From positions 92,302 to 156,301 of the forward strand of contig CAWDHI010000006.1 of assembly GCA_963802095.1 (NCBI GenBank): DNA of 64,000 bases, read 5' to 3'. This document shows, piece by piece, positions 38,674 to 40,317 of this stretch (the stretch's first letter is position 1; every line of letters starts with the position of its first letter). A program made the translations under genes and the position numbers. The notes beneath the pieces are model-generated. The model searched no databases. It was not told where the DNA came from and saw only the letters and a program-made list of their open reading frames with translations. Source of the stretch: an uncultured Chloroflexia bacterium. Its GTDB lineage: Bacteria > Chloroflexota > Anaerolineae > Anaerolineales > Anaerolineaceae.

Positions 38674-40317
38674 ATGACATTCAATCTTCTTCCCCGTAAA
38701 TCCCTATCCGACGTGCTGGCCGGGCGGATCGCCAATGCCATCACCAGCGGGAAATTCAAACCCCTCAGCCAGTTGCCCTCCGAACGCGAGTTGTGCGAAC
38801 AGTTCGGGGTGGGGCGCTCCACGCTGCGGGAGGCATTAAAAGTCCTGCAGGAGAATGAGCTGATCACCGGCAAGCAGGGAGTGGGCTGGTTCGTCAATGA
38901 GTTGAATGCCTCCAATCTTGCCAATGCCCGCGAGTTGGCAGCTACGGATCTCTCCCTGATCGCGGATGATACGGATAAAAAGGCGCGGGATGAATCTGCA
39001 GGACCCAAGCGGCTGCCGGTCTCGCCGGAAAAACCGCTGGTGCTGCCCAACCTGAAGACAGACCGGCAGGGGACCTTTGAGCTGATCTCCTGGTGGGAGC
39101 GCGATAAGGTGGCAAAGGCCAAGGTGCTGGTTGTGGGGGCGGGAGCGCTTGGCAACGAGGTGGCCAAAAATCTGGCGCTGATGGGCGTGGGGCAAATTTT
39201 CATCCTGGATTTCGATACCATCGAGCTGGCCAACCTGAGCCGCTCGGTACTCTACCGCGAAAGCGACACCGGCCGCCGCAAAGCCGAAGTGGCAGCCGCC
39301 CGGCTGAAGGACCTGAACCCCAATGTACGGGTGCAGTACCTGCATGCCGATGTGACCACCGGGCTGGGGCTGGGCATCCTCCGCCGGATGGATGTGATCA
39401 TTGGCTGCCTGGATAACCGCGAGGCCCGGCTGGCTGTGAACCGATTCGCCTACTGGATGAACAAACCCTGGGTGGATGGTGCCATCCAGGAGTTCCTCGG
39501 GCTGGTGCGGGTCTTCATCCCCGGGCAGGGTGCCTGTTTTGAGTGCACGCTTACTGAGCAGGCCAGGCGGGATCTTTCCCTGCGATATTCCTGCCCACTG
39601 CTGGCGCGAGAAAACGTGCTTCTTGGCAAGGTGCCCACCACGCCGACCATCGCCTCCATCATAGGCGCCATGCAGGCACAGGAAGCGCTCAAGATCATCC
39701 ATGCGTTGCCGGTTGAGGCGGGTAAGGTTACCCATTTCAACGGCATGACCAACGATATGCACACCAGCGCTTACAAACCGCGCGAGGATTGCGAATCGCA
39801 CTGGACCTACGGCGAGGTGACCGAGCTGCCTGCGAGCGCGGGCAAGACCACCCTGGGTGAGATGGTTCGCATTGTCCACGCCGACCTTGGCGCTGAGGCC
39901 GTGCTGGAGCTGGACCAGGAGATGATCATTTCCCTGAACTGCACTGCCTGCCAGACGCGCGAGCGGGTGTTGAAGCCCATGGCGGAGGTAACATTCAAAG
40001 CTGCGCACTGCCCAACCTGCGGCAACTTGCGCGAGATCGAAATGACCCACACGGTGACTGGCAAGGAGGATTACCTTTCCCTGACCCTTGCAGATGCGGG
40101 TGTTCCTGCGCTGCACATCCTGCGCGCCTATAATGCCCGTGAATACAGATTCTACGAATTGACCGGAGACTTGAAGGAAGCGCTGCACTTCAGCCATTTT
40201 GAAAAAGCTTCCCTGGTCGGTGCGACCCGCGGGATCAAAGTTCGCCTTGGAGAGGAAGAACCATCGATCGTCGTTAAACCAAAAGACAAAGGATCCAGGA
40301 TCACCCTGAAGGAATAG
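38674..40317 (+). CDS. GntR-type wHTH fused to an E1-like (ThiF/MoeB/Uba) adenylation domain and a C-terminal CxxC-x19-CxxC/beta-grasp-like region
   Basis: aa 10-78 [64 protein letters not shown] (GntR HTH). aa 148-215 [61 protein letters not shown] (E1 Rossmann/ATP site). Candidate crossover-loop Cys in RYSCPLL. C423xxC426...C446xxC449. Confidence 0.85.
   Translation: [547 protein letters not shown]

Follow-up and report, generated by a model that had tools for sequence, protein, structure and literature searches.

A GntR-type DNA-binding domain fused to the E1 of a bacterial ubiquitin-like conjugation operon, with a conserved predicted operator at its own promoter

A 64,000-nucleotide stretch from an uncultured bacterium of the Anaerolineaceae (Chloroflexota; GenBank assembly GCA_963802095.1, contig CAWDHI010000006.1, positions 92,302 to 156,301 of the forward strand), here called the window, carries a gene in which a GntR-type winged helix-turn-helix (wHTH) precedes a ThiF/Uba-type E1, the activating enzyme of ubiquitin-like protein (Ubl) conjugation. 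The gene opens an operon that also encodes Ubl, E2, predicted RING E3 and JAB peptidase components. A preliminary description of the window, written from its letters and its open reading frames (ORFs), had drawn attention to this fusion. Here we find that the fusion is conserved across Anaerolineae, that its catalytic and DNA-contact residues are intact, and that, among the E1 genes compared, only the fused gene has a FadR-type palindrome at its promoter. We propose that this palindrome is an operator through which the E1 would probably repress the synthesis of its own conjugation pathway.

Features of the fusion gene and its product, in window coordinates:
38674–40317, forward strand: GntR–E1 fusion gene, 547 residues, ATG start, no internal stops
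38710–38895, forward strand: GntR wHTH, FadR-like (residues 13–74; Pfam PF00392)
38950–39060, forward strand: linker (residues ~93–129), a variable stretch followed by the motif GP(R/K)RLPVxPEKP, predicted to be disordered
39061–39795, forward strand: ThiF/E1 adenylation domain (residues 130–374; Pfam PF00899)
39592–39594, forward strand: Cys307 (RYSC307PLL), candidate catalytic cysteine in the crossover loop
39811–40188, forward strand: β-rich C-terminal domain (residues 380–505) with the zinc knuckle pair C423/C426/C446/C449

Conservation of the fusion

The best 120 protein clusters from a search of a 5.8-billion-protein database share 64–100% identity with the fusion protein, and each of the 119 that are of full length contains both Pfam domains, GntR and ThiF. 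In a survey of genomes in which each species was represented once, 146 relatives were recovered. All of the 80 loci retained for analysis carry the fusion and belong to Anaerolineae, the finished genome of the cultured Pelolinea submarina among them, and Leptolinea tardivitalis is likewise present among the fused protein clusters. Across the Anaerolineae genome matches, E1 identity ranges from 61 to 94%. The fusion match begins at query residues 1–15 in 79 of the 80 loci; in the remaining one (L080) it begins at residue 45, where the contig ends. We found no plasmid or phage record carrying the fused protein.

An assembly or frameshift error that joined two genes was among the concerns raised in the preliminary description. 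The window assembly is indeed not free of error, its vWA-domain gene being broken by an indel, but the chance that the fusion itself arose in this way is next to negligible. The same single ORF is present in about 146 independent genomes, a finished isolate genome included; more than 100 protein clusters derived from independent assemblies have it as well (119 of the 119 of full length), and the non-fused relatives have no upstream GntR gene that could have been joined. Given this recurrence across protein clusters and genome loci, we rejected an assembly artefact.

When the E1 part alone (residues 120–547) was compared with 1.84 billion representatives clustered at 50% identity, one fused representative was returned (P0121), followed in rank by stand-alone E1s of about 390–410 residues with at most 49% identity. 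Their alignment with the query starts at residue ~123 and extends over most of the C-terminal domain, and the closest of them belong to other Anaerolineae, Candidatus Promineifilum being one example. Non-fused relatives of the whole operon, their E1s within the same identity limit, were found in Promineifilum, in other Anaerolineae and on a mobilizable cyanobacterial plasmid. No GntR gene stands beside the non-fused E1 operons in the five loci inspected, and a Rosetta-stone origin, in which a separate GntR gene adjoins a non-fused E1, was accordingly not seen in any of them. Because those operons lack a nearby GntR gene, the wHTH is a clade-specific accretion onto a pre-existing E1, rather than a join of neighbouring genes or an artefact. 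Automated annotations record both domains—the label is 'adenylyltransferase/DNA-binding transcriptional regulator YhcF' at JGI, and 'ThiF family' or 'GntR family' at NCBI—so the architecture itself is already in the databases.

A FadR-like winged helix on a tether

The N-terminal GntR domain is genuine. The protein string quoted for it in the preliminary description is present and in frame with the E1, and PF00392 matches residues 13–74 with 67.2 bits (E 1e-18) against a gathering cutoff of 27. The NCBIfam models that match this part of the protein are NanR, PdhR, GlcC and LldR, and its top sequence matches in the PDB are PdhR and FadR-family regulators. FadR contacts DNA through E34, R35, R45, T47, R49 and G66 (PMC4494728, Table 1); in an alignment with FadR (1hw1), the first five of these correspond, at an offset of +3, to E37, R38, R48, T50 and R52, all of which are invariant across 53 diverse family sequences. 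The wing position (H65 in FadR) is Q68 in the subclade of the window and H, P or Q elsewhere. In the AlphaFold2 (AF2) model, the domain has a predicted local distance difference test score (pLDDT) of about 80.

GntR subfamilies are set by the C-terminal domain, the recognised ones being FadR, HutC, MocR, YtrA, AraR and PlmA (PMC4494728). A Pfam scan detected neither FCD (PF07729) nor any other known GntR effector domain in the fusion protein, the C-terminal part of which consists of ThiF and a domain resembling a ubiquitin-fold domain (UFD) in place of FCD. Because the FCD that defines the FadR subfamily is absent, the protein lies outside it; by its defining domains it belongs to both the GntR family and the ThiF/Uba superfamily. 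The earlier suggestion of a new GntR architecture is borne out in that the protein falls outside all of the recognised subfamilies.

The linker was first put at about 60 residues, which agrees with the variable stretch at residues 94–107 but takes in segments of a different kind on both sides. Residues 82–93 form a helix and residues 108–121 a conserved proline-rich motif, GP(R/K)RLPVxPEKP, in which P111, R113, L114, K120 and P121 are invariant; the E1 proper starts at about residue 123, as judged from alignment with the N terminus of non-fused E1 relatives. The AF2 pLDDT is below 50 for residues 93–141.

The E1 half

PF00899 matches residues 130–374 with 200 bits (E 3.9e-59). The nucleotide-binding and catalytic set—G155–G160, D179, D181, R190, K203, D247, N248 and R252—is intact, and the GxGxxG loop, the DxD motif, R190, K203 and the D247-N248-x3-R252 motif are invariant in the family alignment. 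The GAGALGNEV... stretch and the C423xxC426-x19-C446xxC449 pattern are present as quoted in the preliminary description; its catalytic Cys306, the cysteine of RYSCPLL, needs a correction by one to C307. The crossover-loop position assigned to that cysteine is upheld: C307 lies within the flexible, low-confidence loop 302–322 of the AF2 model, is invariant in the fused proteins and is at least 90% conserved in the non-fused relatives. Also invariant, or almost so, are C288xxC291, C373 and H376, which probably make up a second, structural zinc site typical of MoeB-like E1s.

The full-length AF2 model, built from a 53-sequence alignment, has a mean pLDDT of 69.5, with the wHTH and the adenylation core predicted confidently. 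UBA3, ThiF and MoeB are its top Foldseek matches (E 1e-16 to 1e-18), UBA3 being the best with 440 alignment columns. Sequence matches in the PDB are UBA1, UBA7 and UBA3 (102–86 bits), E. coli ThiF (90) and MoeB (80), where the UBA1 score is a sum over two domains and ThiF is aligned across more residues. The nucleotide-binding stretch had been described as closer to Uba enzymes than to MoeB. This view agrees with the ranking of UBA1, UBA7 and UBA3 above ThiF and MoeB in the PDB, but the margin is small, and among the NCBIfam models matched by the C-terminal part (ThiF, MoeB and Ube1) the best are ThiF and MoeB.

Modelled alone, the C-terminal domain reaches a pLDDT of 92.6. Its Foldseek matches are led by the UBA3 UFD (3fn1_A, prob 0.84), the UBA2 UFD (3ong) and a Uba3 β-grasp domain (2lq7), and UFDs of UBA3 and UBA2 hold ranks 1, 3, 10 and 12 among 350,542 chains. 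The ubiquitin-fold tail foreseen in the preliminary description gains weak support from these matches: the best E value is 0.029, TM scores are 0.34–0.51, no match has an E value below 1e-3, and MCM zinc-ribbon/OB domains are interleaved among them. With modest confidence, we assign the domain as a UFD-like β-grasp with an inserted C423/C426/C446/C449 zinc knuckle; it may recruit the E2.

A conserved palindrome at the E1 promoter

The intergenic region upstream of the E1 is 225 nt long and contains two elements:
38608–38635, forward strand: sigma-70-type promoter (TTGACA at 38608–38613, 16-nt spacer, TATAAT at 38630–38635)
38636–38664, no strand assigned: predicted operator, inverted repeat CTTGTTT-AG-TGGTCTGATTA-AC-AAACAAG

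The promoter boxes match the consensus at 12 of 12 positions, and TTGAC.../TATAAT-like boxes occur at the same position in most related loci. The predicted operator lies directly behind the −10 box and ahead of the ribosome-binding site (RBS) and the E1 start codon; its core spans 38645–38655, with the centre 24 nt before the ATG, a distance equal to the median across loci.

When the upstream regions of related loci are aligned on the E1 start codon, a sole element is shared amid sequence that otherwise cannot be aligned: TGGTCTGACCA, mostly within TGGTAT/ATACCA half-sites. The resulting family consensus is TGGTAT-AG-TGGTCTGACCA-AC-ATACCA, and that of Pelolinea is TTGGTATAGTGGTCTGACCAATATACCAA. 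The core is matched at 8 or more of its 11 positions in all 79 loci with upstream sequence, the three seeming exceptions having it 200 nt upstream. Information content reaches 1.5–2.0 bits per position across the 11-nt core and an A.ACCA box 8–13 nt downstream of the core centre, and falls to about 0 in the flanks. Site counts cover 1.32 Mb of related loci, about 20 kb per genome. Within this sequence, TGGTC[TA]GACCA has 59 exact copies, compared with 0.66 expected from composition; 56 of the copies lie within 80 nt upstream of an E1 start, the 3 outside E1 promoters are scattered, and no second site for the palindrome recurs around the locus.

Operators of the FadR subfamily are palindromes with TKGT/ACMA boxes in which GT and AC lie 3 nt apart; extra half-sites are common, and NanR uses TGGTATAW repeats, which the TGGTAT half-sites here resemble (PMC4494728). 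TGGT-CTG-ACCA, together with the flanking TGGTAT(AG), follows this rule exactly, and it also has the GntR-type form NyGT-Nx-ACNy, on the gene's own promoter in 79 of 79 loci. No operator site with one mismatch or fewer occurs anywhere in the five non-fused E1 loci (0 of 5). The preliminary description had proposed that transcription of the operon is coupled to the E1. At the level of autoregulation this seems well founded, because the conserved GntR-type operator, within 38560–38680, lies on the operon's own promoter.

Metagenomes were scanned with the DNA pattern only (GGTATNNTGGTCTGACCANNATACC, 21 specified bases), which returned 117 stretches, 80 of them fetched. The site lies 5–80 nt upstream of a GntR–E1 N terminus in 74 of the 80 and at a contig end in 3 more; the true outliers are 3. 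In the first (L107, 8003–8027), the identical 25-nt extended palindrome heads an operon of a 2-hydroxyacid dehydrogenase and then a GntR+FCD regulator, the latter with an FCD match of 80 bits and a wHTH 42% identical to that of the fusion. In the second (L098, 2600–2624), the extended palindrome heads a CitMHS transporter–DHDPS–GntR operon. In the third (L128, 2617–2641), where the contig ends early, the same 25-nt extended palindrome lies at a catabolic operon unrelated to E1. Because the first two operons encode GntR regulators, the palindrome appears to be a bona fide FadR-type GntR operator class that in Anaerolineae is tied to the fused gene, and the operator type would predate, or be common beyond, the E1 fusion.

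These outliers bear on a different assignment of the site, in which the palindrome serves a stand-alone FadR-type regulator while the fused wHTH has lost its role at DNA or changed it, for example to protein–protein contacts. The extended palindrome does head at least one unrelated operon encoding a canonical GntR+FCD protein. We nevertheless consider such an assignment quite improbable: the palindrome is present in 79 of 79 fused loci and absent in 5 of 5 non-fused relatives, no variation is seen at the residues with which the fused wHTH would contact DNA, and no separate GntR gene was noticed beside the operon in the inspected loci, in a survey that queried the seven operon proteins only.

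We also considered an RNA element in place of a DNA operator and rejected it. The left outer arm abuts the −10 box, which would place it at the transcription start or ahead of it, and a stem formed by the inner palindrome would have only 4 bp; an Rfam search of 38400–38800 gave no match.

Two further observations concern the upstream regions. Those of non-fused, Promineifilum-type E1s (L081, 7880–8000; L086, 2950–3070) are rich in short tandem repeats (GTGGTCT/GTGGTCA, TTCGTAA four times and ATCACG(T/C) four times), which stand where the GntR operator would be. In 30 of the 79 fused loci, a second palindrome, AGTAC-N4-GTACT, lies at −80 to −103, at or just upstream of the −35 box (for example, at −82 to −85 relative to the E1 start codon in L026, L052 and L078). 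It is often degenerate on the right (TTCCT or GACCT), has exact copies nowhere else in the 1.3 Mb, shares a 5-N4-5 geometry with FNR/CRP-type sites and is not found in the clade of the window (window 38450–38610). Its identity as a LexA/SOS box was rejected, as lexA promoters carry GAAC-N4-GTTC instead and no such box precedes any E1.

Operon and gene neighbourhood

The genes downstream of the fusion are:
40322–41152, forward strand: membrane protein with a C-terminal Prok-RING_1 finger, predicted E3 (PF14446, 34 bits, residues 229–268)
41174–42019, forward strand: UBC-type E2 (HPN...C) with an N-terminal YukD-like Ubl domain (PF08817, PF00179)
42056–42322, forward strand: free YukD-like Ubl, 88 residues (PF08817; ATG at 42056, ORF open from 42020, ending ADITAG-stop)
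42351–43022, forward strand: JAB/MPN metallopeptidase, predicted de-conjugating enzyme (PF14464, PF01398)
43010–43936, forward strand: membrane protein with a C-terminal FHA domain (PF00498, 48 bits)
43933–44980, forward strand: vWA-domain gene, split by a 1-nt indel (PF13519 and PF00092 on the two halves)

The fusion gene is thus the first of a same-strand cluster that reads E1, RING, Ubl–E2, Ubl, JAB, FHA, vWA. In tblastn searches with the seven operon proteins, nearly all loci of sufficient length had the seven genes in an unchanged order; the RING gene lies upstream of the E1 in L032 and L035, and flanking genes are common to the closest relatives only. With E1, UBC E2, Prok-RING, JAB and Ubl encoded together, the cluster is a prokaryotic E1–E2–RING–JAB–Ubl operon. 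The non-fused operons are arranged either as E1, YukD-Ubl, E2, JAB, JAB, Prok-RING, Prok-RING or as E1, Prok-RING, Ubl(s), Ubl–E2 and three JABs. In 67 of 71 loci the C terminus of the free Ubl reads AD[VI]TAG-stop, so that no processing would be needed before activation.

Because the operon has no other E1, the fusion E1 must serve the pathway. This bears on the idea that the protein is a transcription factor only, its E1 moiety being a catalytically dead sensor or dimerisation module. The MocR regulators, in which a GntR wHTH is joined to an enzyme fold used for sensing, provide a precedent (PMC4494728, PMC5320631). The idea is, however, very hard to reconcile with what we see: the adenylation residues and C307 are all invariant, the operon with this sole E1 also encodes Ubl, E2, E3 and peptidase, and non-fused orthologues hold the same operon position.

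PADLOC returned no system-level match for the operon. The adenylation domain gave partial matches (at most 72 bits to Cap2 and 30 bits to BilD) and the JAB protein weak ones, whereas E2, Ubl, RING, FHA and vWA gave none. As the result is negative beyond generic E1/JAB similarity, we rejected a known defence system, and on the evidence of its genes the operon is not a Bil, Bub or CBASS system.

The preliminary description had also raised the prospect of ubiquitination placed on invading DNA. More broadly, the wHTH could direct Ubl conjugation to DNA-associated proteins or foreign DNA, the promoter site being incidental or one of many. A nucleoid-held E1 would raise the local conjugation rate, and the Bil, Bub and CBASS Cap2 systems act in phage defence, many of them wired to DNA-damage regulators (PMC11601603). 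We judge such tethering unlikely all the same. The sole conserved site found is the operon's own promoter, the 3 other exact cores and the 74 E1 promoters among 80 pattern-only matches being as given above; the membrane anchoring of the RING E3 and of the FHA protein suggests a site of action at the membrane and not at DNA; PADLOC is negative at the system level; and the operon is vertically inherited across the order, not scattered like defence islands. With no recurring second site around the locus, nothing points to the targeting of invading DNA.

Several side observations were made on the operon and its surroundings. The N-terminal YukD-like Ubl of the E2 ends in ADITAG, as the free Ubl does, before a variable linker, and is conserved across loci; this suggests that Ubl–E2 is either a JAB-cleavable precursor or an in-cis Ubl. 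The vWA gene is present in the window as two overlapping ORFs in different frames, with the indel near 44325–44343, and as a single ORF of 338–365 residues in five related loci; the split is either a sequencing error or a recent pseudogene. Close relatives are long-read metagenome-assembled genomes with fragmented tblastn matches, which bears on the indel as an error.

A lexA homologue lies directly downstream of vWA, mostly in convergent orientation, in 13 related loci (L039, L047, L049, L051, L054, L055, L063, L066, L069, L072, L075, L077 and L079), where a textbook Cheo box (GAAC-N4-GTTC) lies in the lexA promoter, between −35 and −10. As the 13 have similar E1 identities (61–67%) and may form one clade, the adjacency may be a single historical accident. 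The window itself has GAAC-N4-GTTC (LexA/Cheo-type) boxes at 28770 and 60771. At 32524–33093, on the forward strand, it encodes a TIR_2/SEFIR-domain protein (52 and 48 bits), followed by a 182-residue ORF without a Pfam match; neither was found in the related loci. The TIR_2/SEFIR ORF lies in a low-GC stretch (32001–34000, GC 0.40 compared with ~0.57) and may mark a small, horizontally acquired defence island; a second low-GC stretch is at 14001–16000.

Proposed mechanism of autoregulation

We propose that the fusion protein is bifunctional, both E1 and autorepressor, and that the conjugation operon is probably under negative autoregulation by its own E1. Negative autoregulation is the best-supported reading because the operator, between the −10 box and the RBS, is in the classic repressor position and because the E1 belongs to a homodimeric family, MoeB and ThiF being homodimers (PMC12355090). 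In outline, the C-terminal two-thirds of the protein would be the working E1 of a pathway comprising the downstream Ubl, E2, membrane RING E3 and JAB, together with the FHA and vWA partners. The E1 would adenylate the C-terminal glycine of the 88-residue Ubl, hold the Ubl as a thioester on Cys307 and hand it to the E2 through the UFD-like C-terminal domain. The FadR-like wHTH, on a flexible tether of about 30–50 residues, would bind TGGTCTGACCA and the TGGTAT/ATACCA half-sites, and the occupied operator would block RNA polymerase and thereby repress the whole operon. The adenylation domain would homodimerise as in MoeB and ThiF, supplying the dimerisation otherwise provided by an FCD, UTRA or aminotransferase domain, and the homodimeric E1 would offer two tethered wHTHs to the palindrome.

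Several points weigh against this proposal. Operator and fusion go together within a single clade, so that their association counts as one evolutionary event, and the palindrome could also be bound by a stand-alone FadR-type regulator encoded elsewhere in these genomes. The AF2 model of the whole protein is of mediocre quality and silent on communication between the wHTH and the E1. In the subclade to which the window belongs, the right half-site of the core reads GATTA or GATAA, a degenerate form of GACCA, and regulation there may be weaker or have drifted. Q68 is paired with TTGT/ACAA outer arms in 6 of the 7 such loci; among the roughly 70 loci whose arms are TGGT/ACCA, 3 have it; protein and site may have drifted together, but the pairing concerns one or two related clades and we do not use it as evidence.

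BirA is an adenylating enzyme with an N-terminal wHTH for which the adenylate acts as co-repressor. Autorepression by the E1 could be extended along the same lines: its catalytic state—free, bound to ATP, carrying Ubl-adenylate or thioester, E2-bound or self-modified with Ubl—might switch DNA binding by setting the grip of the wHTH on the operator, and transcription of the operon would then report Ubl supply or conjugation demand. We put forward such a sensor-enzyme only tentatively, by analogy. The architecture parallels that of BirA, the linker motif is strictly conserved and not random sequence, and in ordinary GntR proteins the C-terminal domain is an allosteric effector module (PMC4494728). 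Sequence data are silent on allostery, however, the long disordered tether speaks against tight conformational coupling, and simple constitutive autorepression accounts for all of the observations.

Comparison with known systems

Prokaryotic E1–E2–RING–JAB–Ubl operons were reportedly described by Burroughs, Iyer and Aravind in 2011 (Mol Biosyst 7:2261). The operon here resembles them in its Uba-like E1 with a C-terminal extension, its UBC E2 with HPN...C, its transmembrane-anchored Prok-RING_1 E3, its JAB and its YukD-like Ubl; it differs in the N-terminal GntR wHTH of the E1, in a promoter with an operator and in the addition of FHA and vWA. PMC3417536 describes such operons as sporadic and highly mobile, a trait that describes the type without strictly defining it, whereas the version here is syntenic and inherited as a block in all of the related genomes retrieved.

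To our knowledge, the Caldiarchaeum subterraneum E1/E2/RING-E3/Ub/Rpn11 cluster is the only such E1–E2–RING system to have been biochemically reconstituted. Like the operon here, it places a complete eukaryote-like cascade in one prokaryotic operon (PMC5654768); unlike it, the Caldiarchaeum cluster is archaeal, uses a ubiquitin-like modifier where the operon here has a YukD-like one, and has an E1 without a DNA-binding domain.

Among transcription factors, the fusion protein can be set beside the FadR-subfamily regulators FadR, PdhR, NanR, LldR and GlcC, with which it shares wHTH sequence, Arg/Thr DNA contacts and a TKGT-N3-ACMA operator, and from which it departs in having a 420-residue E1 enzyme in place of FCD. 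A second comparison is with BirA and with trigger enzymes, of which NadR and PutA are further examples. In these, in MocR and apparently also here, a (w)HTH at the N terminus and an enzyme fold, adenylating or other, are part of a single protein that regulates the pathway it serves. The enzyme families are unrelated, and coupling of catalysis to DNA binding, proven for BirA, is conjectured here. MocR establishes that GntR wHTHs and dimeric enzyme folds can be combined in one protein (PMC4494728), but its enzyme fold is a sensor, whereas the E1 here looks catalytically intact.

The Bil (types I and II), Bub and CBASS Cap2 pathways are, like the operon here, bacterial E1–E2–Ubl conjugation systems, some with a deubiquitinase. 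Many of them are under dedicated transcription factors, such as CapW/BrxR or CapH with CapP (PMC11601603). In contrast to the fusion operon, they have separate regulator genes, no RING E3 and a sparse, mobile distribution.

Implications

It is only recently that CBASS Cap2, Bil and Bub have opened bacterial Ubl conjugation to experiment; for the RING-containing operons, which are nearest to the eukaryotic system, we know of no established biological role or mode of regulation in bacteria. What is new here is the conserved FadR-type palindrome on the E1's own promoter. In the literature searched, we did not find the fusion, the operator or their lineage-wide conservation described, although the fusion may be depicted in the founding 2011 operon paper, and a 2025 review of E1 mechanisms does not mention a DNA-binding E1 (PMC12355090).

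Should the BirA-like extension be true, the protein would be the first known example of a DNA-binding E1 and would define a seventh GntR subfamily, with an E1 effector domain; a vertically inherited, housekeeping E1–E2–RING E3–deubiquitinase pathway would tune its own transcription to conjugation demand. The classification of GntR regulators would gain an enzyme as effector module, and the system would offer a natural test of whether the catalytic state of an E1 can be read out as transcription. In the cultured hosts Pelolinea, Leptolinea and Anaerolinea, the system looks core and vertically inherited and not like a mobile defence island, and a conserved cis-element with a built-in regulator should make its inducing conditions findable with a simple reporter. 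The fusion may thus provide an entry point into an uncharacterised, eukaryote-like ubiquitin system of bacteria.

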